64,000 bases of DNA from a virus (IMGVR_UViG_3300043539_001475:1-64000); one strand, 5' to 3'; shown: positions 1 to 12,074, counted from the first letter of the stretch. Made by a program: numbers and translations. Notes: a model not told the origin generated them from the letters alone.

Positions 1-180
1 TTTGGGGTTTCCAAAAGAACAATTATCTTTATATGCAAGCCTGAAACATTACAAGCTTGTTTAGAGAAAAGAAAAGAAAGAGGTGGTTGGAAACAATACT
101 ACGATAAAGAAAAACATTGTTTAAACATAAAAGAACATAGGGCTTATAAAAAAGAACTTTTTAAAAACAAATTAATATGA
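1..180 (+). CDS. partial ORF (5' truncated), possible HTH protein
   Basis: Frame 1 is open from the window start: FGVSKRTIIFICK...NKLI*; FGVSKRTI resembles an HTH recognition helix. Confidence 0.4.
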   Translation, partial: FGVSKRTIIFICKPETLQACLEKRKERGGWKQYYDKEKHCLNIKEHRAYKKELFKNKLI

Positions 181-334
181 AAAAAAACAACAAAAAACCC
201 CCTTACGAAATAGAAAAAGAGCTATTAGAAGAAAAGAAGATTGTTAGAACATCTTTTATTAATTTTACATTGTTTGTTCTTTTGTCTTTTTTTCTTTTTT
301 TAATCTTTTTGTTTTATACTATTATTCATTCCTT

Positions 335-571
335 ATGACAAAAATATTTTTACAATCCTTTTTTCAAATAGGATTAGTTTCAATTTCAACCATACTTATT
401 ACAAAGCATTATTATCTAGGTATTTTTGTGGTCGCGTTTGCAATATCTTTATTGTGGACATATAATGTTTCTAAAATAGCAATTAGTTCTTTTAAGCAAA
501 AATTAACCTACGCATTAGGTGCTGGAAGTGGAGCAGTGTGTGGAGTATTATTAACTCAATTATTTAACTAA
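335..571 (+). CDS. small multi-TM membrane protein
   Basis: 78 aa with three hydrophobic segments. Confidence 0.6.
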   Translation: MTKIFLQSFFQIGLVSISTILITKHYYLGIFVVAFAISLLWTYNVSKIAISSFKQKLTYALGAGSGAVCGVLLTQLFN

Positions 572-705
572 AGAAAATGTATCACGAGAGTAAACACAAT
601 CAGAAATTGCTAAACATAATATGGATTATAGTTATAGCATTTGTATTTTTAATTAAATGGATATTTAGCTAATTGCTAATATAACAAAACAAAAACTTTT
701 TTAAA

Positions 706-1434
706 ATGGAAATAACAAAACCAATTATCTTTTTTGACTTAGAAACTACGGGAGTTGAAATAAACACCGCTAGGATAGTTCAAATAGCTTGTATTAAAAT
801 AAATGCAGATGGTAGTAAAGAGGAAAAAGAAATCCTAATCAACCCAACAATACCAATTCCAAAAGACGCTACCGAAGTTCATAATATTACCGATGAAATG
901 GTAAAGGATGCTCCAAAGTTTTTTAACATAGCTAAATCTTTATTTTCGTTCTTTGAAGGTTGCGATATTGCAGGATATAATTCCGATGCTTATGATGTTC
1001 CACTTTTGTGTGAAGAGTTCGGTAGATGTAATATAGAATTTCCAACATGGGAGGTAAACCTTATTGATGTGCTAAAATACGAAAGGCTATTGAATCCAAA
1101 CAACCTTGCTTCTGTTTACAAAAGATATACGGGCAAAGAATTAGATGGTGCGCATAATGCAATGAATGATGTTAGAGCAACATTTGAAATATTAATGTGC
1201 CAATTAGAAGGTAAACAAGAACAAAGTCCAGAACAAATAGATTTGTATTGTCAAGGTGAAAGAAAACGATACGACATAGGTGGTAAAACTTATATCGATA
1301 AAGAAGGTAACGTAAGATGGTCATTTGGTAAAAATATGCACAAGCTAGTATTGGATGATTTAGGCTATTATCAATGGGTGTTAAAAAACGACTTTCCAAC
1401 CGAGCTTAAAAACAAACTTAAAAAACTTAGTTAA
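706..1434 (+). CDS. DEDDh 3'-5' exonuclease (DNA Pol III epsilon-like)
   Basis: FFDLETTG (ExoI), GYNSDAYD (ExoII), AHNAMND (ExoIII); C-terminal FGK motif. Confidence 0.9.
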   Translation: MEITKPIIFFDLETTGVEINTARIVQIACIKINADGSKEEKEILINPTIPIPKDATEVHNITDEMVKDAPKFFNIAKSLFSFFEGCDIAGYNSDAYDVPLLCEEFGRCNIEFPTWEVNLIDVLKYERLLNPNNLASVYKRYTGKELDGAHNAMNDVRATFEILMCQLEGKQEQSPEQIDLYCQGERKRYDIGGKTYIDKEGNVRWSFGKNMHKLVLDDLGYYQWVLKNDFPTELKNKLKKLS

Positions 1435-1439
1435 AATAT

Positions 1440-1760
1440 ATGAAAAAGAAAGTTGTGTTTATAAAACTAGATGAATCATCGTCACTTTTTAAGGCTTTAA
1501 AGCAAAGAAATTTGATAGACTATAGAGGTTTTTTATCTTTATACTTAAATGATGTTCCGAGAATAGGAGAAAGCTTTACGCTTCCTTATGATTCTATGAC
1601 CTCTGAAAAAAACGAGATACTAAAATTATATCTTACAAAAAGACCACAAAATAAACCAATTATGAAAGTTGAAGATTTAATTATAGACCAAGTTTGCGCA
1701 GAATATAATTTGTACTACTTGAAATGTTCTTATATAAACGATACGAATAATTGGTTATAA
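1440..1760 (+). CDS. hypothetical protein; stop codon is the TAA of the first TAAC site
   Basis: ORF track; ends ttggttaTAAc. Confidence 0.55.
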   Translation: MKKKVVFIKLDESSSLFKALKQRNLIDYRGFLSLYLNDVPRIGESFTLPYDSMTSEKNEILKLYLTKRPQNKPIMKVEDLIIDQVCAEYNLYYLKCSYINDTNNWL

Positions 1761-1850
1761 CGTATGGTGCTATGAGCAGGTTTGCCTTGCAGAAATATTC
1801 AAATTTAGCACAAATGTTATTGGCAAACTTGCTTATAGCACGTGTTAGCA
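1755..1850. repeat. attC-like hairpin site 1
   Basis: TAAC 1758-1761; arms gtgctatgagcaggtttgcc (1767-1786) / ggcaaacttgcttatagcac (1822-1841); GTTA 1844. Confidence 0.8.
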
Positions 1851-1942
1851 GTAGTACGGTAATTAACCACAAATGCTCATTCGGAGAACCGAACCTTTTT
1901 CTTTTCTTTTTTGAGCGAGGGCAAAAATATTAAAATAAAATT

Positions 1943-2851
1943 ATGACAATAGATTTAAGATACGGAGATGCAATAGAACAAATGAAATTGATAGCAGATG
2001 AAAGTGTTGATGCTATAATTTCAGATATTCCTTATGGGATTTCATTTAGTGATTGGGATGTTAAACATTCTAATACCAATACTGCATTATTAGGGAGTTC
2101 CCCTGCACAACAAAATAGTAAAATATTTAAAAGTAGAGGTAAGCCTAAAAATGGATGGAGCGATAAAGACAAGCAAATAAGCATTGAATTTCAAATATTT
2201 TGCGAAAGTTTTTTAAAAGAGTGTTATCGAATTATGAAACCTGCATCTCCAATATTATGTTTTACAGGAAGGCAATATCAACATAGGTTTACGGTTGCAG
2301 GAGAAAATAGCGGTCTAATATTAAAAGATGTACTTAGTTGGAATAAGAAAAAAGCACCATTTAAAGCACAAAGGATAGGTCAAGTAATAGGTAAAAGAAA
2401 TTCAGATTATAGCGATAATAGAAGATTGGGTAATTTAGCACCAATAGTAGAACCAATTGTGTATATGTTTAAGCCATATAAGATTGGTGGAACTATTACA
2501 GATTGTTATTTGAAGTATGGTACAGGTACTTTTTCTTCTGAAATTTACAAAACAAATTTAATTGAAGAAAGTTCGCATATTTCAGACAAGTTACACGAAA
2601 CCCAAAAGCCGTTAAAACTAATGGAAAACTTAATAAAAACTTTCACAAAAGAACATCAAACTATTTTAGATATGTTTGGTGGCTCAATGACAACAGGAAT
2701 TGCCTGTATAAACACAAATAGAAACTTTATCGGAATTGAGAATAATATGGATTATTTTAATATTTCTTTAAAGAGGGTGGAAGAAAAAAGAAAAGAAAAA
2801 GATTTAAAAAAATTGTGCGATGGTAAAAAAAGAATTTACAACAGAAATTAG
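1943..2851 (+). CDS. DNA N6A/N4C methyltransferase, beta class
   Basis: SDIPY motif IV near the N-terminus, HETQKP, LDMFGGS SAM-binding motif near the C-terminus. Confidence 0.92.
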   Translation: MTIDLRYGDAIEQMKLIADESVDAIISDIPYGISFSDWDVKHSNTNTALLGSSPAQQNSKIFKSRGKPKNGWSDKDKQISIEFQIFCESFLKECYRIMKPASPILCFTGRQYQHRFTVAGENSGLILKDVLSWNKKKAPFKAQRIGQVIGKRNSDYSDNRRLGNLAPIVEPIVYMFKPYKIGGTITDCYLKYGTGTFSSEIYKTNLIEESSHISDKLHETQKPLKLMENLIKTFTKEHQTILDMFGGSMTTGIACINTNRNFIGIENNMDYFNISLKRVEEKRKEKDLKKLCDGKKRIYNRN

Positions 2852-3023
2852 CAATGAACTAATGAACATTTATTTGTTGCTTGGAATTGACAAACCGACT
2901 AATCACGAAGATATTATTCAGTTTGTTTCAGAAGATGTGGAAGCATCAACAAATGCAGAAACATATACAAGTGAGGACATAAAAATTGCATTTAGAAGAT
3001 TAATTGAAACTTATGAATACTAA
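2820..3023 (+). CDS. hypothetical phage protein
   Basis: 67 aa ORF overlapping both neighbours. Confidence 0.5.
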   Translation: MVKKEFTTEISNELMNIYLLLGIDKPTNHEDIIQFVSEDVEASTNAETYTSEDIKIAFRRLIETYEY

Positions 3024-3855
3024 CTTAATATTTGGAGATTGCCAAGAATATTTACCAAAACTTGAAAGTGAAAGTTTTGATTTAATCCTTTGCGATTTAC
3101 CATACGGAACAACAAGGCTGAAATGGGATTGTCCGATTGATTTAGAATTTTTGTTTGGTGAATATGAAAGATTAATTAAACCAAAAGGTGCGATTGTACT
3201 ATTCGGAAACCAACCATTTACAAGTAAATTGATAATGACAAGACCTTCCTTGTACAAATATAGTTGGATATGGGTAAAGCCATTTCCTACGGGGTTTTTA
3301 AATGCAAATTACAGACCGATGCTTTCTTTCGAGGATATACTTGTATTTAGTAAAAGTGGTGCAGGTGCAGGAAGTAAAGACAATAATATGAATTACTATC
3401 CACAAGGATTGATAGAGATAAATAAGAAGAAGAAAAACAAGAAAGGTACGAGAGGTCAACACATACACGATACTGTTAATTGCGGAATACAAAATGTTTT
3501 GAATAGTGAAAAAGAGTATCAGCAAAAATTTACAGGTTATCCGAATAATATTTTAGAATGTGATAGAGATGAACCGCAATTGCACCCAACTCAAAAACCG
3601 TTATTATTGATTGAATACTTGATTAAAACATACTCAAAAGAAGGAGGTAATGTTTTGGATAATACTATGGGAAGCGGAACGGTTGGTGTTGGTTGCAAAA
3701 ATTTAAAAAGAAACTTTGTAGGGATGGAAAACAAAAAGGAATATTTTGACATAGCAAACGAAAGAATACTAACGGCTGTGATAACAGACGAAAAAGAAGG
3801 GGAAAATTTTTTAAAATCTTTTTCTCCACAAACTTTATTCGGAGATGAAAAGTAG
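3004..3855 (+). CDS. DNA N6A/N4C methyltransferase, beta class (start probably ATG 3013)
   Basis: CDLPYG, HPTQKP, LDNTMGSG. Confidence 0.93.
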   Translation: MKLMNTNLIFGDCQEYLPKLESESFDLILCDLPYGTTRLKWDCPIDLEFLFGEYERLIKPKGAIVLFGNQPFTSKLIMTRPSLYKYSWIWVKPFPTGFLNANYRPMLSFEDILVFSKSGAGAGSKDNNMNYYPQGLIEINKKKKNKKGTRGQHIHDTVNCGIQNVLNSEKEYQQKFTGYPNNILECDRDEPQLHPTQKPLLLIEYLIKTYSKEGGNVLDNTMGSGTVGVGCKNLKRNFVGMENKKEYFDIANERILTAVITDEKEGENFLKSFSPQTLFGDEK

Positions 3856-3861
3856 TATTGT

Positions 3862-3954
3862 TGGTAACGTTATCGGGCTTGGCGAAGGTGGGCTTGTAGG
3901 ATGCTCAATTTTAGCAGAATGTTTCTGCCCACTTTTGCCAAACCCGTGTTACCT
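3862..3954. repeat. attC-like hairpin site 2
   Basis: TAAC 3865; arms cgggcttggcgaaggtgggc (3874-3893) / gcccacttttgccaaacccg (3927-3946); GTTA 3948. Confidence 0.82.
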
Positions 3955-4020
3955 GCTGGTGCGGTTAATTCAGGATAAACTTGATACGAAGAACGAAACA
4001 AAAATTTTAAATAAAAAAGC

Positions 4021-4830
4021 GTGGGAAATTTTAACTTAGATACAGACGAACAAAAAGAATGGTATGGTATAAGCACTAACCGAAGTAGTGAACACTTAGG
4101 GGATTGCTTAGAATTGATGCCATTGATAGCAGATGAAAGTATTGATTTGATACTTTGCGACTTGCCATACGGCACTACTCAAAACAAATGGGATAGCGTT
4201 ATTCCACTTGATAAACTTTGGAAAGAGTATGAAAGAATTATAAAGCCTAATGGTGCTATTATTTTAACAAGTGCTGAACCATTTACAAGTGCTTTAGTAA
4301 TGAGCAATCCAAAACTATTTAGGTATGATATAATTTGGGAAAAGCAGAAAGGAAGTGACCCATTAAATGCCAATAGAAAACCATTACGAAGCCACGAAAA
4401 TATACTTGTATTCTACAAGAAACAACCAACATACAACCCACAATTTGAACAAGGCGAACCATATATTAGAAAAGGTGATTGTAGGGTTAAATCAAGCAAT
4501 TTCAACGAAGCAAAAACTATAAACGATAGAGGTAGTGAAGATGGCAAACGATACCCCAAAACCGTTGTAAAGTTTAGTGGCGAAGGAATGAACTCAAACA
4601 ACTTGCACCCTACACAAAAGCCACAAAATTTAATGGAGTATTTGATTAAACAATATAGCAACGAAAACGAAATAATACTTGACAATACGGCAGGAGTATT
4701 TACAACTGCAATAGCTTGTTTAGAAACGAATAGAAAGTATATTGTAATGGAGCAAGAAAAGGAATACTACAGCAAAGGATTAAAACGAATACTTGAATGG
4801 GAACGAGAACAAAAAACAAAATTGTTTTGA
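4021..4830 (+). CDS. DNA N6A/N4C methyltransferase, beta class
   Basis: CDLPYG, HPTQKP, LDNTAGVF. Confidence 0.92.
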   Translation: MGNFNLDTDEQKEWYGISTNRSSEHLGDCLELMPLIADESIDLILCDLPYGTTQNKWDSVIPLDKLWKEYERIIKPNGAIILTSAEPFTSALVMSNPKLFRYDIIWEKQKGSDPLNANRKPLRSHENILVFYKKQPTYNPQFEQGEPYIRKGDCRVKSSNFNEAKTINDRGSEDGKRYPKTVVKFSGEGMNSNNLHPTQKPQNLMEYLIKQYSNENEIILDNTAGVFTTAIACLETNRKYIVMEQEKEYYSKGLKRILEWEREQKTKLF

Positions 4831-4908
4831 AAAAACAAAAGTGCGATGGCTTTTTATTTAAAATTTTCTTTCACAAATGTTCAATAGTAGCAGTATCGTA
4901 GCACTTGC

Positions 4909-5038
4909 AGGTAACGGTCGGGTATTGCCGAAGGTGGGGCATAGTACCACAAATGTTGATTAAACCACTAAAGTTAAATAGATGCAGAATGTTGAAAATA
5001 TAGATGTCAGCCCCACTTTTGGCAATACAGTGTTACCT
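4909..5038. repeat. attC-like hairpin site 3
   Basis: TAAC 4912; arms gtattgccgaaggtggggc (4922-4940) / gccccacttttggcaatac (5010-5028); GTTA 5032. Confidence 0.82.
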
Positions 5039-5641
5039 GCCGTTGTGGGTTCTCAAACGAAATACCGAACAATAGTAGCAGACCCACCTTGGAAGTATGG
5101 TAAATGGGGTAAAGCATCTGACAGCCCTTTAGCAAGAAAGAAGTTCCCAAATGGACAATGGGAAAAAGATTTTGATATACCATACCAAACGATGGGTATT
5201 GAAGAAATTAAGGCTTTAAATGTAGCAAATTTAGCAGATGATAATTGCGAGTTGTATTTATGGACTACCCAAAAATATTTACCTGATGCTTTTGAAGTAT
5301 TGAAGGCTTGGGGTTTCAAGTATTGCCAAACATTGACTTGGTGTAAAACACCACGAGGAACTGGACAAGGTGGAGTATATTGCCCTACAACCGAATTTTT
5401 AATACTTGGGAGAAAAGGTAAAGCACCAAAAGTAAAACGAATAGATACAACTTGGTGGAATGTAAAAAGAACAAGTAATCATTCTAAAAAGCCTGAATTT
5501 TTTCAAGACTTAATCGAAACGGTTTCAGATGCTCCACGATTAGAAATGTTTGCAAGGCGTGAACGTGTCGGATGGGATATTTGGGGCAATGAATTAGAGA
5601 ATGATGTCGAATTGGAAACGTCTGCTAACAATGGCAGGTAA
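4982..5641 (+). CDS. MT-A70 family N6-adenine methyltransferase
   Basis: VADPPW, LYLWTT, WGFKY, HSKKP, LEMFAR, GWDIWGNE. Confidence 0.93.
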   Translation: MQNVENIDVSPTFGNTVLPAVVGSQTKYRTIVADPPWKYGKWGKASDSPLARKKFPNGQWEKDFDIPYQTMGIEEIKALNVANLADDNCELYLWTTQKYLPDAFEVLKAWGFKYCQTLTWCKTPRGTGQGGVYCPTTEFLILGRKGKAPKVKRIDTTWWNVKRTSNHSKKPEFFQDLIETVSDAPRLEMFARRERVGWDIWGNELENDVELETSANNGR

Positions 5642-5768
5642 CGGCAAAGTATAACTGTCAGGTGGGGGATTAAATGCACCGAACCTTCACATTGACACTA
5701 AACTAAATTAGGAGCAGATAGCTTCGGGTGGTTAATCAGCCCCCACTTGCAGTTATACAATGTTATGG
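5636..5768. repeat. attC-like hairpin site 4
   Basis: TAAC 5639; arms gtataactgtcaggtggggg (5649-5668) / cccccacttgcagttatac (5740-5758); GTTA 5762. Confidence 0.8.
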
Positions 5769-5791
5769 GCTGGTGTTTAATACTTATTTTT

Positions 5792-5923
5792 ATGACAGCA
5801 ACAGATGAAAAGTATGTTGAAATTCTAAAAGCCGTTTTACAATCTGAAAAAGTTTGGGAACGAAACGATTTACTATCGGCTTTCAAGAAAGCATTAGCCA
5901 AAAAGAAAACGGCTAAAAAGTAA
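5792..5923 (+). CDS. 43-aa basic microprotein in a mini-cassette
   Basis: MTATDEKYVEILKAVLQSEKVWERNDLLSAFKKALAKKKTAKK*, translated by hand; it fills the cassette 5762-5964. Confidence 0.5.
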   Translation: MTATDEKYVEILKAVLQSEKVWERNDLLSAFKKALAKKKTAKK

Positions 5924-5957
5924 CTGTTATAGGGTGGGTGTGCTTCGGTACACTTGC

Positions 5958-6087
5958 CCATAACGTTTGGTATAAGACCAGTAGCGGAATAGAAATTACA
6001 AACTTTCAAAATTAAACGAATGAATATAGAAACCACAAACTCCCCGAATACCACCGAAACCGCTATTGGTTTTATACCGTGTTATGC
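5958..6087. repeat. attC-like hairpin site 5
   Basis: TAAC 5961; arms ggtataagaccagtagcgg (5969-5987) / ccgctattggttttatacc (6060-6078); GTTA 6081. Confidence 0.82.
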
Positions 6088-6844
6088 ACAGGTTTTTTTA
6101 GGTGATTGCTTGGAACTATACAAGAATATAGAACCGAAAAGTATTGATTTAATTTTAACCGATTTGCCTTATGGTACAACCGCCTGTAAATGGGATACAA
6201 TAATCCCATTTGACAAACTTTGGGAAATGGTTAATTACTTACTTAAACCAAACGGAGCATTTATTACAACTGCTTCGCAACCATTTACAAGTGCTTTGGT
6301 AATGAGTAACCCAAAGATGTTTAAGTATGAATGGATTTGGGATAAAGTACAACCAACTGGAGCATTTAACGCAATTAAGCAACCAATGAAACTACATGAA
6401 AATATTTTAGTATTTTACAATGAACAGCCAATTTATAATAGACAAATGACTGATAGACCGCTAAAAGATTTAAGACCAAACCAAATTAAAACTACTAAAA
6501 AACTGGATAAAATAGAATATGAATATTTGGGCGGACAAAAGAAACAATACTCTGAAAATTGGGATTATACCAAAGTAAACCCAAAAACTATTATTCAATT
6601 TCAAAAATCTGCTGAAAGATTTAAGGAATTTAAACACCCTACACAAAAACCAATAGCGTTATTTGAATACTTACTAAAAACATACAGCAATGAAGGAATG
6701 ACAATATTCGACCCTTGTATGGGTTCAGGAACTACTGGAATAGCTTGTAAAATCACCAACCGAAACTTTATTGGAATAGAGAAAGACGAAGCATATTTCA
6801 AAATCGCAGAACAGCGAATAAATGCACGAACGTTGTTTCCTTAA
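6020..6844 (+). CDS. DNA N6A/N4C methyltransferase, beta class
   Basis: TDLPYG, HPTQKP, FDPCMGSG. Confidence 0.93.
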   Translation: MNIETTNSPNTTETAIGFIPCYAQVFLGDCLELYKNIEPKSIDLILTDLPYGTTACKWDTIIPFDKLWEMVNYLLKPNGAFITTASQPFTSALVMSNPKMFKYEWIWDKVQPTGAFNAIKQPMKLHENILVFYNEQPIYNRQMTDRPLKDLRPNQIKTTKKLDKIEYEYLGGQKKQYSENWDYTKVNPKTIIQFQKSAERFKEFKHPTQKPIALFEYLLKTYSNEGMTIFDPCMGSGTTGIACKITNRNFIGIEKDEAYFKIAEQRINARTLFP

Positions 6845-6853
6845 ACTTGTGCA

Positions 6854-6890
6854 TAACTAATTGCTAACCGCATAAAATGTATTACAAAAT
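6854..6890. repeat. array-terminal site, copy 1 (attI-like?)
   Basis: TAACtaattgcTAACcgcataaaatgtattacaaaat, nearly identical to 7908-7944. Confidence 0.6.
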
Positions 6891-7074
6891 GGCAAAAATA
6901 CTAACAAAAACAAAGGTCATAAGGATTACAGGAACACAACATAAAACACTTCAAAAAATGAAGTCTTACAATGTTGATATAGGTAAGTTTATAAGAGATT
7001 CGATAAGTGAAAAAATTAAAAGAGAATATCAAGATTTAATACCCAAACCAAATAAAATTATTATACCTTTCTAA
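6877..7074 (+). CDS. small ribbon-helix-helix-like DNA-binding protein
   Basis: KTKVIRIT strand followed by two helices (QHKTLQKM; IGKFIRDSISEKI). Confidence 0.5.
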   Translation: MYYKMAKILTKTKVIRITGTQHKTLQKMKSYNVDIGKFIRDSISEKIKREYQDLIPKPNKIIIPF

Positions 7075-7127
7075 CAATTATAAATAAATAAAAATAATTT
7101 TAAACCAAACTTAAAAATTAAAAACAA

Positions 7128-7910
7128 ATGATTGATAGAATTACTGAACAGCCATTTTGCCAAACCCGTGTTAGTGGCAGTACTTTTGTAAACGCTGATT
7201 GCTTTGATGTTTTTCCTTTTATTGAGGATAAATCAATAGATGCTATTATTTGCGATTTACCTTATGGAACAACCGCTTGTAAATGGGACAGTATTTTACC
7301 TTTAGACAAACTTTGGAATGAGTATAAAAGGATAATAAAAGATAATTGCCCGATTGTTTTATTTGCTCAAATACCATTTGATAAAGTACTTGGTTGCTCT
7401 AATTTAGAATGGTTAAAATACGAATGGATTTGGGAAAAATCAAAAGCAAGTAATTTTTTACAAGCTAAATATATGCCGATGCGAGTACACGAAAATATTT
7501 TGATATTTTGCAATGGTAAGGCTAATTATTTCCCACAAAAAACAGAAGGTAAAGCATATAGAACAAGAAAAATAAATGAGAAACACGGCAACCCTGATGC
7601 GTACAACAATATTCCTAATTATATGAATAGAGAGCCAATTGAGATGAATGGAAGACTACCAAGAACTGTTCAATATTTTAAAACGGCACATACAGAAGGG
7701 AAGCTACACCCAACATTAAAACCTTTAGAACTTATGGAATACCTTGTAAAAACCTACACAAACGAAGGAGATATGGTTTTAGATAATACAATGGGTTCGG
7801 GAACAACAAACTTGGCTTGTATAAAATTAAATCGCAAATCAATAGGGATAGAAAAGGAAAAAAAATATTACGATGTCGCTGTTCGGAGGGCTTCGGAGTA
7901 TTGCCACTAA
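7128..7910 (+). CDS. DNA N6A/N4C methyltransferase, beta class
   Basis: CDLPYG, HPTLKP, LDNTMGSG; stop codon is the TAA of TAAC. Confidence 0.93.
   Translation: MIDRITEQPFCQTRVSGSTFVNADCFDVFPFIEDKSIDAIICDLPYGTTACKWDSILPLDKLWNEYKRIIKDNCPIVLFAQIPFDKVLGCSNLEWLKYEWIWEKSKASNFLQAKYMPMRVHENILIFCNGKANYFPQKTEGKAYRTRKINEKHGNPDAYNNIPNYMNREPIEMNGRLPRTVQYFKTAHTEGKLHPTLKPLELMEYLVKTYTNEGDMVLDNTMGSGTTNLACIKLNRKSIGIEKEKKYYDVAVRRASEYCH
7155..7176. repeat. attC-like half site (right arm only)
   Basis: ttttgccaaacccgtgtta is identical to 3933-3951 of site 2. Confidence 0.75.
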
Positions 7911-7944
7911 CTACCTGCTAACTGCATAAAATGTATTATAAAAT
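7908..7944. repeat. array-terminal site, copy 2 (attI-like?)
   Basis: TAACtacctgcTAACtgcataaaatgtattataaaat. Confidence 0.6.
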
Positions 7945-7978
7945 CATAAAAAAACAAACTTAAAAAACTTAATTAAAA

Positions 7979-8848
7979 ATGAACCAAGAACTAAACAGAA
8001 TTATCGACAATTCTTTAATTGAAAAATCAAAGTCAGATTACATTAAAGAAAAATTTGAATCGTTTACAGAAACGGCTTTAGAGTGGAATAAGAAAGCCAA
8101 TGAGATATTAGTAACCGATGAAACTCAAACAGACCTTATGGCTTTAGCTAAAGAAGGTAGATTGATACTAAAATCAAAACGCATAGAGATTGAGAAAACA
8201 AGGAAATCGTTGAAGGAGCAGTCTTTAAATGAAGGTAGGTTAATAGATGGTATTGCAAAGCACTTGATGTCTATTGTAGAACCAGCAGAAAAGCATTTAG
8301 AAACTCAAGAGAGATTTTTAGAAATACAAGAGCAAAAAAGAAAAGCTGAACTAAAAGCAGAGCGTTACAAGCTTATGTTGCCTTATGCAGAAGTATTAGA
8401 CCCTGAAACTTTGCAATTAGATATAATTACCGATGAAGCTTTTGCAGGTATTCTTAATTATGCTAAAACAACATTGGAAGCAAAGATTGAATCCGATAGA
8501 ATAGCCAAAGAGGAAAAAGAAGCTAAAGATAAAGCTGAAGCTCAAGAGATGGAAAATATACGATTGGAGAACATAAAGCTTCGAGAAGACGCTTTGTTTA
8601 AACAAAAAGAAGCTGATGACTTAAAAGCTAAAACAGATGCCGACCTAAAGGCTATTGCACAAGAGATGAAAAAGCAATCTGCGACTTTAAAGACCATCAT
8701 AAAAAAAGAGCAAGTAATTGTTGAGAATGTGGAAACGCTGAAAGAAAAACTGAATAGTGCAAAGACGACTATGCAAATTTGCTTAAACTATATTATCCAT
8801 GATGACATGAGGAGGATGATTGAGCAAACTCTAAAAGAGATAAATTAG
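7979..8848 (+). CDS. coiled-coil phage protein
   Basis: 289 aa, E/K/A-rich and helical. Confidence 0.7.
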   Translation: MNQELNRIIDNSLIEKSKSDYIKEKFESFTETALEWNKKANEILVTDETQTDLMALAKEGRLILKSKRIEIEKTRKSLKEQSLNEGRLIDGIAKHLMSIVEPAEKHLETQERFLEIQEQKRKAELKAERYKLMLPYAEVLDPETLQLDIITDEAFAGILNYAKTTLEAKIESDRIAKEEKEAKDKAEAQEMENIRLENIKLREDALFKQKEADDLKAKTDADLKAIAQEMKKQSATLKTIIKKEQVIVENVETLKEKLNSAKTTMQICLNYIIHDDMRRMIEQTLKEIN

Positions 8849-8876
8849 AAATAATATGAAATATTTTATATAATAT

Positions 8877-8906
8877 TTTGTATTACTAAAATATTTTATA
8901 TATTTG
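8877..8906 (+). promoter_or_regulatory. Bacteroidota housekeeping-sigma promoter
   Basis: TTTG 8877-8880, N18, TATATTTG 8899-8906. Confidence 0.6.
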
Positions 8907-8937
8907 TAAAACAAAACTCAAACTTAATAACAACAAA

Positions 8938-9459
8938 ATGAAAAAAACAATTACCTCTGCTTTAGTATTATTATCAATTAGTACTTATTCTCAAATTAAA
9001 AAACCTTTTATTATTGAACACTGTAAAGACAAAATGACAGACAAGGAATATTACTTTTCTAGTAAAAAATTAATTTGCTCTAATCCAGAAAAAACAAAAG
9101 GATTTACAATTACTCCTAACTTTAAAAAAGTCGATAACGATATGGCAGAAAACGGATTAATTTTATCAAATGTTAATATTGGAAATTGTGATGAAAAAGA
9201 CCAATTAATATTTTTATTTGATGATGATTCTAAAATAACTTTAACTTCGTGGAATAAATTTAATTGCGAAGGAAATGCTTACTTTGATATGTCTGACGAA
9301 CAATTTAACATTATAAGTTCTAAACTAATAAAAACAATTAGATTTGTCAATGGATATAAATACGAAACATTTACTTATAGTTTGGAAATTAGTCAAAAAG
9401 ATTATTTTGTAAACGCATATTCTAATTATGAAATAAAAGAAGTAAATTGCAATAACTAG
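8938..9459 (+). CDS. secreted protein with signal peptide
   Basis: MKKTITSALVLLSISTYS/Q, the Bacteroidota-type signal peptide ending before Gln. Confidence 0.75.
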   Translation: MKKTITSALVLLSISTYSQIKKPFIIEHCKDKMTDKEYYFSSKKLICSNPEKTKGFTITPNFKKVDNDMAENGLILSNVNIGNCDEKDQLIFLFDDDSKITLTSWNKFNCEGNAYFDMSDEQFNIISSKLIKTIRFVNGYKYETFTYSLEISQKDYFVNAYSNYEIKEVNCNN

Positions 9460-9625
9460 TTAATAATTTAAAAATAATGAACAGCTTATCTGATTATTTT
9501 TTTAAAAAATATTTTCAATGCAAAAAGCATGATAAGACCTATTGGTTTAATATGTATCTAAAAGCATACTTTAAAGAACAAAAATTAAAATAAACAATAA
9601 ACACTAACAACAAAAATTAAAAATT

Positions 9626-9895
9626 ATGGGAATTTTAGACTGCTTAAAATCAAAAAAAGAAACGGTAACCACTCCGACAAAAAAAACTACGAAACGTCAA
9701 CAAGTGCTTAGTCATTTGAGAAAACATGGAAGTATTGATAGTTGGACTGCTATTGAACTTTACGGAGCAACACGACTATCTGCTATTATTTTTAACCTTC
9801 GTGCAAAAGGGCTTAAAATTGATTCTATTGGCTGTTCAGCCTTAGATAGAAATTCTAATGTGTGTAACTATACAACCTACAAACTTATATCCTAA
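9626..9895 (+). CDS. winged helix-turn-helix protein (HTH_39-like)
   Basis: QVLSHLRKHGSIDSWTAIELYGATRLSAIIFNLR. Confidence 0.75.
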   Translation: MGILDCLKSKKETVTTPTKKTTKRQQVLSHLRKHGSIDSWTAIELYGATRLSAIIFNLRAKGLKIDSIGCSALDRNSNVCNYTTYKLIS

Positions 9896-10095
9896 TGGAA
9901 TTTAAGATGCGAGCTAATCCAAAATGCAATCATACTGGTCAAGGTCTTTATATAATCGTTCATAACTATTCAAATTTAAACGAAGTTGGTAATTATTATT
10001 ATTCAGATAAAATATATACCGACAAGCACCACTATACTGAAACTTTAAACATGAACGCTATTGGTCGTTGGCTTCCTAAAACTATAAAAAATTAA
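9895..10095 (+). CDS. hypothetical protein
   Basis: Translationally coupled ORF. Confidence 0.5.
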   Translation: MEFKMRANPKCNHTGQGLYIIVHNYSNLNEVGNYYYSDKIYTDKHHYTETLNMNAIGRWLPKTIKN

Positions 10096-10101
10096 AAAAA
10101 A

Positions 10102-10314
10102 ATGAACACAATTAAAACTCCTTCTTTTGAGGCTATTGACAATTTTTCTGAAATGTTATCCAAAAAAACAAACAAAACTTCTTATGAAGACATAAAGAGA
10201 AAAGTGTCTAATTATTTAGTAAATAATGGCTCTTCTAAGTTTGTAAGTCTTTATAATGAATTGGTATCTAATAAAGATTACTCAAAAGCTCATGAAGCTT
10301 TAAAAATAGAATAA
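10102..10314 (+). CDS. hypothetical protein
   Basis: A-rich leader; in operon. Confidence 0.55.
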   Translation: MNTIKTPSFEAIDNFSEMLSKKTNKTSYEDIKRKVSNYLVNNGSSKFVSLYNELVSNKDYSKAHEALKIE

Positions 10315-10428
10315 TGCAATGTTGTTTGCACGAACAAGACAAAGTAGCTGAAGTGCTATTCAACAAGTTTGGTAAAAAAACAGCAGTATTAATTTGCTGT
10401 TTAAAATGTTGTTCACAAAAAAAAATAC

Positions 10429-10659
10429 ATGGAAAAAATAGAAATAGAGGTTACGAAATTATCTCAAATAATTTCATTGAGGGGAATGACCCAAAAAGAT
10501 TTACAAAATCTAATTAAGAAAACTAACTATGGTAAATGTCCTGCTATGTATATTCTTAACTCCATTATTAATGGCAGAAAAACTAATTACAATATAGATA
10601 CATTAAGACCCATAAAAAAAGCACTAAACGTATCGTATGACGATTTAATTGACGACTAA
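10429..10659 (+). CDS. XRE/Cro-type HTH regulator
   Basis: RGMTQKDL...LNSIINGRKTN.NIDTLRPIKKALNVSYDDL. Confidence 0.8.
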   Translation: MEKIEIEVTKLSQIISLRGMTQKDLQNLIKKTNYGKCPAMYILNSIINGRKTNYNIDTLRPIKKALNVSYDDLIDD

Positions 10660-11302
10660 AATGGATGCTATACTTTTTATTCAAGACCTAAACAAAAAAG
10701 GTAAGATTTATAAAGATGTTTGGCTTCACTTACTTTTGAAGTATGAAGAGAACAAGCCAATTTCATTTAACGTAAATGTTAAATTTAATGGGGTTTCTTC
10801 TAGTACCTATTATCGTATTGTAGATTATGGAATTTCTATATTTCCTAATTTCTTTAAGAATTGTAAAATAGAAAAATTAAGAGGGGAATTGGTTATAAGC
10901 AAAATTGACAACACAGTAGTTCAAATGCCTATACAACTAAAACCTAAAAGAGTTGTCAAACCCAAAATCGAAGTAGAAAAGCCATACGGTGCTTATGAGG
11001 AAATTATTAATTATTTGAATTTATGTACTGGTCAAAAATACAGAACAGATTCAAAAGTAACTATTTCTTTTATTGAACTTAGAATGAAAGACGGGTATAA
11101 TGTAGATGATTTTAAGCAAGTAATTTTGAATAAGTCAAAAGCATGGCTGAATACAAATATGCAAACATATTTAAAGCCACAAACTCTCTTTGGTAATAAA
11201 TTCGAAGGATACCTTAATGAAGTTTCATTTGTAGAAAAAAATAAACAAGAACAAAACTATGACGCAGTTAGCCAAGCAACAGAACTCGGTTGGAATAATT
11301 AA
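10649..11302 (+). CDS. phage replication initiator with conserved phage C-terminal (Phg_2220_C-like) domain
   Basis: EIINYLN...GYNVDDFKQVI..K...W.....YLKPQTLFGNKFEGYLN. Confidence 0.8.
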   Translation: MTTKMDAILFIQDLNKKGKIYKDVWLHLLLKYEENKPISFNVNVKFNGVSSSTYYRIVDYGISIFPNFFKNCKIEKLRGELVISKIDNTVVQMPIQLKPKRVVKPKIEVEKPYGAYEEIINYLNLCTGQKYRTDSKVTISFIELRMKDGYNVDDFKQVILNKSKAWLNTNMQTYLKPQTLFGNKFEGYLNEVSFVEKNKQEQNYDAVSQATELGWNN

Positions 11303-12074
11303 ATCCTTACCCAATACGACTTCTAAAGAAATATCTTTATACAACGCATACCAAACCCACAAAAAGATAAAAGACTTCAATACAAAAGACGAATTGCTAT
11401 TGATGAGTAGCTTAATATTACGTTGGGCTAGTTATGTTGGTATTAAGAAGCCAGAGCCTTCTGAAATAAATACCATTGCGAACTACATAAGAGAAAACTT
11501 TCCTAATTTTAATGCTTATGATATTAATGAGTGCATTACTTTGTTAGTTAATGGCTCCCTAGATACCGATGCAGAACACTATGGTTCCTTGTCTGTAATA
11601 TATTGTTCTAAAGTGATGAAGTCTTACCAATCTTATAGGGGTGAGATTATTTTTAAAGTTAGAGATAAGTTGCAAAAAATTGAGCAGGAAAAGGTTGTTG
11701 TTCCAACCGATGCAGAAAGGTTAAGAAACTTTAAGGAGCTGTTGATTTTTGCAAAGGAAAAGGTTTCAAAAAAAGAGGTGTATGATGACTTTGGAGATGT
11801 GCTATATTACTTCTTCTGGAAGAACAATCTAGTTGAAAAACCAATGCCAGAAAGTTTGATTAAAGATGCCATTTCTTATGGGGAAGAAAAGTTTAGAACT
11901 AAAGCTCAAAACGGTGCTTTGAAAAGCGTTATTAACGGTGTTGGATTTACCAAGTTAGTAAGGGAAGATATTGTTAAAAAAAGCGCACGGGAGTACACTA
12001 TTAACTTATGGTTAACAAATGCTGATATAAACACTATTTTGAAAAAAATATCGATAGAAATGATTAAGTATTAA
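11259..12074 (+). CDS. putative replication accessory / helicase-loader-like protein
   Basis: Sits directly after the initiator; helical; function inferred from gene order only. Confidence 0.45.
   Translation: MTQLAKQQNSVGIIKSLPNTTSKEISLYNAYQTHKKIKDFNTKDELLLMSSLILRWASYVGIKKPEPSEINTIANYIRENFPNFNAYDINECITLLVNGSLDTDAEHYGSLSVIYCSKVMKSYQSYRGEIIFKVRDKLQKIEQEKVVVPTDAERLRNFKELLIFAKEKVSKKEVYDDFGDVLYYFFWKNNLVEKPMPESLIKDAISYGEEKFRTKAQNGALKSVINGVGFTKLVREDIVKKSAREYTINLWLTNADINTILKKISIEMIKY

Follow-up and report, generated by a model that had tools for sequence, protein, structure and literature searches.

How does a virus come to carry six DNA methyltransferase genes in a row, set apart by a family of long imperfect hairpins? 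The genes, with small open reading frames (ORFs) between them, occupy positions 1758-7944 of the + strand of IMGVR_UViG_3300043539_001475:1-64000, the 64,000-nucleotide stretch of DNA that was analysed and is called the window here. The window covers the opening 64 kb of an IMG/VR virus record of 101,210 bp, which CheckV rates as complete. A first-pass annotation had proposed a swappable set of methyltransferases acquired by site-specific recombination. This is still the best reading of the locus, as units are gained, lost and reordered at TAAC motifs and a tyrosine recombinase is linked to related arrays. We consider it probable that this region represents an orphan array, its mobile gene units belonging to an integron-like gene-capture system carried by viruses.

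The genes in the window are separated by five sites, located at 1758-1847, 3865-3951, 4912-5035, 5639-5765 and 5961-6084. Each site opens with TAACG and closes with TGTTA. The imperfect stem between them measures about 20 bp and encloses a loop of 33-85 nt; a spacer of 4-6 nt separates its first arm from TAACG, and one of 1-3 nt its second arm from TGTTA. Calculated fold energies of the five sites range from -30 to -44 kcal/mol under RNA parameters and from -12.6 to -22.3 kcal/mol under DNA parameters. These sites and an additional half site (7148-7173) are present where the first-pass annotation had placed them, and stop codons lie within TAAC at 1758-1760, 5639-5641 and 7908-7910, as it had stated. 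A covariance model built from 29 sites (A1, R1) matches the whole 101-kb genome at the five window sites only, with scores of 57-86 bits on the + strand versus at most 14 bits on the - strand. In all, 357 distinct sites were recovered from about 160 viral loci and from cultured Flavobacterium and Polaribacter phages.

The ends of each unit are complementary to each other. In the window units, the 15 nt that directly follow a GTTA pair with the 15 nt that directly precede the next TAAC. Five such start and end pairs had been listed in the first-pass annotation, and in a 6x7 start-by-end matrix each is the best match of its row, with 9-10 of 12 positions in Watson-Crick pairs. A sixth pair that had not been listed, formed by the ends of unit 1 (1844-1858 and 3854-3868), pairs as well, mostly through G·T (6 Watson-Crick and 4 G·T pairs of 12). 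Position 11 of the end pairing is G·T in every window pair. The cultured Flavobacterium phage mymlan6-1 has both own-end pairing and G·T at position 11 in all nine of its nine consecutive cassettes. In 184 independent distinct cassettes, 9.3 of 11 positions pair for own ends, compared with 5.8 of 11 when the ends are non-cognate. The pair at position 11 is G·T in 155 cassettes and Watson-Crick in 3, and the pairing ends at position 15. When a unit site is reconstituted from its own end, own hairpin and own start, it folds into a single continuous hairpin with an energy of -21 to -33 kcal/mol (DNA parameters). The site pattern in the window is far beyond chance, since the model matches only five places in 101 kb, all on one strand, and own-end pairing reaches 9.3 versus 5.8 of 11.

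The conservation of the hairpins is that of pairing, not of sequence. Covariation was determined for 104 distinct sites from loci outside the model-building set, in which 95.4% of paired cells are occupied by pairing bases versus 64.1% in shuffles. Compensatory changes occur in 17 of the 18 inner-stem pairs, and the covariation score is 0.738, versus 0.16 for shuffled and at most 0.09 for slid alignments. The arm sequences vary freely. Two more near-invariant G·T pairs are present in these sites, one closing TAACG and TGTTA and the other within the inner stem. On the opposite strand the three conserved G·T pairs become C·A, and the top strand is the better folder in 301 of the 357 sites (DNA parameters).

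Comparisons of related arrays delimit the unit that moves. Nearly identical Muminvirus genomes differ by insertions, deletions and one transposed block, which break at TAAC, within +0 to +20, with one break at GTTA. Homologous units that stand in different contexts, taken over all loci, start on the left at the upstream TAAC in 31 of 36 cases (modal offset 0), and 33 of 37 right-hand ends coincide with the downstream TAAC +4 or +5; most junctions share only 4-7 bases, that is TAAC(G). Unit 6 of the window has a counterpart of about 75% identity in Muminvirus phages and in many metagenomic viruses. Of 37 alignments of this unit, 19 lose homology precisely at the C of TAAC (7911), and 22 do so no more than two bases away. 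Unit 1 resembles a cassette of mymlan6-1, with 87% identity over 1825-2037 and 97% over 2690-2808, and at the nucleotide level the similarity of the two genomes is limited to the array. Scattered matches were returned by tblastx for this pair of genomes.

From these alignments, the mobile unit is a hairpin together with its downstream gene, with the crossover inside TAAC(G), upstream of the hairpin. As the breakpoints lie at TAAC on both sides, the hairpin travels with the gene that follows it. Three ORFs start in the loop of their upstream hairpin (at 4982, 6020 and 7128), which is consistent with such a unit. The integron cassette logic invoked in the first-pass annotation holds in one part and fails in another. 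The cassette start is complementary to its own end, as in a split integron site, but the breakpoints are at TAAC 5' of the hairpin and not at GTTA, so that the sites depart from the integron arrangement of an attC 3' of the ORF with crossover at G|TT of R'.

A recombinase gene is linked to related arrays. Neither tyrosine (PF00589) nor serine (PF00239) recombinases were found in the whole 101,210-bp record, which extends to the entire genome the statement that the window holds no integrase, and both are likewise absent from mymlan6-1 and two other relatives. The tyrosine recombinase that the first-pass annotation had recommended looking for near arrays was found in relatives directly after the last unit. 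A 169-kb contig and a complete 73-kb virus encode such an enzyme of 267-298 amino acids on the same strand as the units, and the two proteins are 39% identical to each other. Homologs occupy the same position in four more loci (all loci: G001, G004, L033, L036, L045 and L016). The best family match of the linked recombinase is XerA NF040815 (206 bits, cut-off 220), followed by XerD and XerC, and its match to PF00589 scores 148.7 bits. The integron-integrase model TIGR02249 matches in two pieces with 155 bits (cut-off 265). Similarly, the protein aligns continuously with the XerA structure 4a8e and in two pieces with VchIntIA (2a3v). Residues 180-247 of IntI, which form the integron-specific domain, are replaced by 25 residues; the enzyme is thus not an integrase of the IntI type, in which an additional domain makes contact with extrahelical bases. 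All catalytic residues (R, K, HxxR, H and Y) are invariant in the linked recombinases (A2).

The association also holds when the search is reversed. Among 80 viral loci fetched by the recombinase alone, 54 have at least 1.5 kb of upstream sequence and were counted; 42 of them contain same-strand upstream sites, in 39 cases within 2.5 kb. Of the sites around the recombinase, 159 lie upstream and 4 downstream, and a single one is on the opposite strand. A control search covered 80 loci with Xer-like genes (30-46% identity) from bacteria and archaea, and sites were found in only two of them, a contig from a Saccharimonadales bin and a scaffold of the isolate Taishania pollutisoli.

The Taishania pollutisoli scaffold comes from strain CZZ-1, a Flavobacteriales isolate (L252, scaffold19, 5354-8432), and ends in a partial Xer-like recombinase with two sites (52 and 78 bits) upstream of it. 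The locus may represent a prophage or else a cellular version of the system, and the isolate is possibly a cultured carrier. In the complete 73-kb virus (L096, G004), a second tyrosine recombinase of 416 amino acids is located directly behind the Xer-like one (5520-7589, - strand) and may be a lysogeny integrase. Cellulophaga phage Ingeline has two integrases too.

The stretch between the last unit and the recombinase has a conserved form. In about 30 distinct loci it consists of TAAC, 2-6 nt, and then TATATGTA, lacks a hairpin, and lies 50-200 nt before the recombinase ATG. In nine contigs the recombinase and the junction are 99.9-100% identical, and the units upstream differ, or units that are themselves 100% identical are reordered. 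The break in this comparison falls exactly at the TAAC next to the junction. The differences among the nine contigs are very recent and precise exchanges at the junction TAAC. The first-pass annotation had named a fixed gene order, no other cargo and no recombinase in related genomes as the outcome that would speak against it; the genomes compared here have reordered units, many cargoes and a linked recombinase.

The array in the window is an orphan: it has no recombinase anywhere in the genome and ends in two decayed junction copies, which occur nowhere else in the window. Copy 1 (6858-6890) contains a second TAAC at 6865-6868 followed by CGCATAAAATGTATTAC and is similar to the junction of TAAC and ATAAAATATGTATTAC upstream of the recombinase in relatives. 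Copy 2 (7912-7944) has TAAC at 7919-7922 followed by TGCATAAAATGTATTAT. The array looks like the end of a platform from which the recombinase gene has probably been lost. By the definition of CALINs, which have at least two attC sites and no integrase nearby, the locus compares with five sites and no recombinase in 101 kb.

A unit spans from one TAAC to the next. It opens with TAACG, the imperfect hairpin of about 20 bp and TGTTA, continues with some 11 bases specific to the unit and then the gene, and closes with 11 bases complementary to the first set, followed by TAA; the A-rich leader of the gene and often its start codon are held in the hairpin loop. We propose the following mechanism. 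In the excised circle, the two ends and the hairpin would form one long imperfect hairpin with a 15-bp outer stem, an asymmetric internal loop, and an inner stem of about 20 bp. The Xer/XerA-like recombinase most likely recombines the folded top strand at TAAC, the partner being another unit site or the hairpin-less TAAC-TATATGTA junction beside the recombinase gene, and units would be inserted, excised or shuffled as the outcome. We infer the folded single-stranded substrate, the exact cleavage position in TAAC, the circular intermediate and the action in trans. Since the virus in the window has no recombinase, its units must have come together at an earlier time or with an enzyme supplied in trans, as might happen in a co-infection.

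Several observations weigh against this account. No recombinase is present in the window virus, the Muminvirus phages or the complete 187-kb relative G002, so that activity of the array in the window virus is putative. GTTA, not TAAC, is found at 2 of 36 left breakpoints. The conserved G·T pairs and the co-orientation of genes are equally compatible with a structure formed in RNA. Moreover, the one tested member of the site family, P12002L_attC1, gave no verified IntI1 recombinants in Escherichia coli (PMC9892861). This failure with IntI1 is uninformative about a Xer-like enzyme.

If the hairpins acted in RNA, they could be elements of a polycistronic mRNA, either stems for processing by RNase III-type enzymes or for stabilization, or translational gates at start codons; long-range pairing of the ends would then seal off each cistron, in the manner of rRNA precursors, and gene exchange would be a side effect. 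All conserved mismatches are G·U-compatible on the coding strand, the sites are always co-oriented with the genes, and the loops contain A-rich leaders and start codons, all of which speaks for this reading. What RNA elements leave unexplained is the restriction of breakpoints to the 4-5 nt of TAAC(G), the dedicated recombinase with its conserved array-end junction, and the presence in unrelated viruses of the same unit ending exactly at TAAC. Furthermore, a scan of window positions 1-12000 against Rfam at E<=1 returned no family, and in a scan for intrinsic terminators the window sites were not terminator-like and had no T-run. We therefore regard a purely RNA-level origin as unlikely, and the same hairpins may have an additional role in translation.

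Recombination of the DNA could also proceed by routes other than the one proposed. Ordinary homologous or microhomology recombination between conserved intergenic repeats, as proposed for PeSL cassettes, would need no dedicated enzyme, which would suit the many arrays without a recombinase, that of the window included, and one flanking repeat is indeed 32 nt long (filifjonk versus mumin). However, most junctions share only the 4-7 nt of TAAC(G), the arms of neighboring sites differ in sequence and offer little usable homology, and the unit-specific, covarying complementarity of ends is not a product of homologous exchange; together with the strong recombinase association, this makes such an origin slightly less likely still. 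The least likely of the three alternatives, in our view, is that of double-stranded Xer modules like the pdif modules of Acinetobacter, in which an arm and its flank would form an 11-6-11 Xer site, inverted sites would flank the genes, and host XerC/D or a phage enzyme would act on duplex DNA. It draws on the Xer-like nature of the recombinase, on the inverted repeats flanking genes, and on features that recur about 11 bp from a central spacer in both stems, but the arm sequences are free to vary and pairing alone is conserved, the spacers are asymmetric (4-6 nt versus 1-3 nt), the TAAC side is the sole boundary so that loop and gene never part, and strand-specific G·T pairs would be meaningless in a duplex. 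Conserved 28-bp XerC-spacer-XerD sites of alternating orientation, with both boundaries used, are not what the arrays contain. The low standing of all three alternatives follows from the confinement of breakpoints to TAAC, the free variation of the arm sequences, and the strength of the recombinase association.

The cargo of the orphan array is in keeping with the claim of five methyltransferases of one class and one MT-A70 enzyme. Pfam assigns five of the proteins to PF01555 (100-120 bits) and one to MT-A70, PF05063 (86.5 bits). No restriction enzyme is located beside the methyltransferases, again as had been claimed, and the other ORFs of the array are small and have no nuclease match. The six proteins are orphan DNA methyltransferases, in that they match above the gathering score and have no adjacent restriction enzyme. 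They probably methylate the viral DNA at several motifs and thereby allow escape from host restriction. A census of 90 distinct ORFs from recombinase-linked arrays contains 13 DNA methyltransferases of four families, 3 PAPS-reductase-like proteins, 2 DUF4326 proteins, one TET-associated glycosyltransferase, one radical SAM enzyme, and one Thoeris inhibitor, Tad3; about 70% have no Pfam match. The cargo of related arrays is thus mainly for DNA modification and anti-defence, which fits a store of counter-defence genes.

The site family is spread over cultured and uncultured viruses. The cultured Muminvirus phages of Flavobacterium have 10-14 sites each, located between small hypothetical genes and methyltransferases. 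In 79 IMG/VR loci fetched with the unit 6 methyltransferase there are 291 model matches, nearly all on the gene strand, and the 169-kb contig alone holds about 45 sites over more than 36 kb. Polaribacter phage P12002L has only weak model matches (22-27 bits), and no match was found upstream of the Xer-like integrase of Cellulophaga phage Ingeline. The cultured Polaribacter phage Leef_1 (L258, 6849-9864) contains variant sites of the form CAACG...TGTTG with own-end pairing upstream of its Xer-like integrase gp38. A junction-like AAC-TCCTATGTATA lies at 7826 in this phage, and three small genes separate it from gp38. Leef_1 is a candidate experimental model, and the cultured systems for tests are the Muminvirus phages on Flavobacterium and Leef_1 with its recombinase. 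As a lead only, the array at window positions 1700-8000 is found nearly unchanged in lake-water and freshwater metagenome assemblies from 2016-2024; some metagenome runs hold just 38-86% of its words and may contain variant arrays.

On balance, we lean towards a wider hypothesis, with less assurance than we place in the reading of the locus itself: that Bacteroidota viruses own a gene-capture platform that arose independently of integrons. The parts of the platform would be a Xer-like recombinase, a junction site without a hairpin, and units that have their hairpin on the top strand and their cargo inverted. Through it, a common and quickly reshuffled stock of genes for counter-defence (DNA methyltransferases, other DNA-modification enzymes, Tad3) would circulate among unrelated lineages, and orphan arrays would be serviced in trans. 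Integrons are a bacterial means of collecting and reshuffling adaptive genes, anti-phage defences included, and a mirror-image system in viruses would, if true, be their counterpart in the arms race. It would also explain the presence of the same accessory genes in unrelated phages, and would mean that the recombination of cassettes through folded hairpins arose, or diversified, outside the IntI family. Already now, the cassettes are a catalogue of candidate anti-defence genes, about 70% of them without a known family.

The units in the window are arranged as follows, all on the + strand. Site S1 (1758-1847, model score 57.2 bits) heads unit 1 and consists of TAACG, a 20-bp stem with two G·T pairs, a 35-nt loop, and TGTTA. 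The body of unit 1 (1844-3868) contains a PF01555 methyltransferase (1943-2851), a small ORF (2820-3023), and a second PF01555 methyltransferase (3004-3855). Site S2 (3865-3951, 62.5 bits) heads unit 2, the body of which (3948-4915) carries a PF01555 methyltransferase (4021-4830) between complementary 15-nt ends (3948-3962 and 4901-4915). Site S3 (4912-5035, 75.6 bits) heads unit 3 and has the ATG of the MT-A70 gene (4982) inside its loop. The body of unit 3 (5032-5642) contains the MT-A70 methyltransferase (ORF 4982-5641), the stop codon of which is within TAAC, and has complementary ends at 5032-5046 and 5628-5642. Site S4 (5639-5765, 64.8 bits) has a T bulge in its stem and heads unit 4, a short body (5762-5964) with a 39-amino-acid ORF (5804-5923) without a family match and complementary ends at 5762-5776 and 5950-5964. 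Site S5 (5961-6084, 86.3 bits) encloses in its loop the ATG (6020) of the PF01555 methyltransferase of unit 5 (ORF 6020-6844), and the body of this unit (6081-6857) has complementary ends at 6081-6095 and 6843-6857.

Junction copy 1 follows unit 5, and between it and the truncated unit 6 there is a 65-amino-acid ORF (6877-7074) that matches phrog_25647, a family with no assigned function; inspected by eye, its sequence resembles that of a small DNA-binding protein. The sixth site (7104-7173) is truncated: the loop, the 3' arm (7148-7166) and TGTTA remain, and the 5' arm is gone. This remnant and the 3' half of an intact site in Flavobacterium phage mumin9-1 have the same sequence. The body of unit 6 (7170-7911) carries a PF01555 methyltransferase (ORF 7128-7910) and complementary ends at 7170-7184 and 7897-7911, and is followed by junction copy 2. 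About 50 nt past this copy, in the position of the recombinase in relatives, lies ORF 7979-8848 (289 amino acids). It has no match in Pfam or PHROGs and was rejected as a recombinase, none being detectable with either database.

Other observations concern unit 1 and the flank of the array. Unit 1 combines two methyltransferases and a 67-amino-acid ORF without an accepted site between them. A model match at 2986-3095 (15.5 bits), between the two methyltransferases, is weak and was rejected as a site; it may be a decayed site, and unit 1 may be two fused units. The leader of the first methyltransferase (1848-1942) contains a small terminator-like hairpin (1880-1893) followed by a pyrimidine-rich run and GAGCGAGGGCAAA. 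Leaders much like it also precede methyltransferases of Polaribacter phage P12002L (L002, about 3870-3905) and mymlan6-1. An RNase_T-family exonuclease gene (706-1434) is located just 5' of the array, and Muminvirus arrays too end beside an exonuclease gene (gp01), which may be a coincidence.

In the searchable literature, the system has been described only as one fragment, the P12002L site called attC (PMC9892861). Qi et al. (2023) reported clusters of attC sites in phages, the CALINs, one of them in Polaribacter phage P12002L with two methyltransferases (PMC9892861). P12002L_attC1 was found there by HattCI and treated as a classical attC, and it was the only site that failed the IntI1 assay in that study (PMC9892861). 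It is a short member of the site family described here (TAACG...TGTTA; L002, 5995-6043), located between methyltransferase genes. The same paper does not mention Flavobacterium phages, the site family, the 15-bp unit-specific stems, the TAAC breakpoints or a Xer-like recombinase (PMC9892861). The paper on Muminvirus described methyltransferase content that varies with host range and reported no hairpins or repeats (PMC7077304).

The pdif modules of Acinetobacter plasmids and the CTX phage share with the viral arrays a Xer-family recombinase and modules bounded by inverted repeats. In CTX phage, a folded single-stranded hairpin is the substrate of Xer recombination. Unlike pdif and other Xer-exploiting elements, the viral arrays have no conserved 28-bp dif-like sequence, encode their own recombinase, and have long hairpin sites and one used boundary per unit. 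In T4-type phages, small accessory genes form the PeSL cassettes, which are flanked by repeats with stem-loops and shuffled among related phages, and their exchange is attributed to homologous recombination between the repeats. The junctions of the viral arrays, in contrast, share TAAC(G) only, their ends are unit-specific, and a dedicated recombinase is linked to them.

The closest resemblance is to integrons, sedentary chromosomal integrons and CALINs included. In both systems, one-gene units are split by imperfect hairpin sites in which only AAC and GTT are invariant, an outer (R-like) and an inner (L-like) stem surround an asymmetric unpaired spacer and are closed by a variable loop, the start of the unit is complementary to its own end, structure and not sequence is conserved, and the sites are strand-specific. 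The viral sites have this attC-type architecture, but their stems are much longer (15 and about 20 bp), and three conserved G·T pairs replace or add to the extrahelical bases. In both, one end of the array has a primary site without a hairpin, which is putative in the viruses, and beside it a tyrosine recombinase gene that points away from the array, and many arrays lack the enzyme. The viral junction, which may correspond to attI, has no hairpin, is near the recombinase, and is the exact place of unit exchange; its role as a recombination site is putative. The viral recombinase has no IntI-specific domain, the viral hairpin precedes its gene and carries the start codon, and the system is found in Bacteroidota viruses with counter-defence cargo. 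The crossover at TAAC on the coding strand means that the cargo is inverted relative to the polarity of the site. An integron seen from its bottom strand has the layout of the viral array seen from its folding (+) strand, with the presumably cleaved AAC at the 5' base of the hairpin, and the viral cargo lies on the folded and not on the opposite strand. The viral system is a mirror image of the integron in its working, and not an integron by membership, because the linked recombinase is Xer/XerA-like and lacks the IntI domain.

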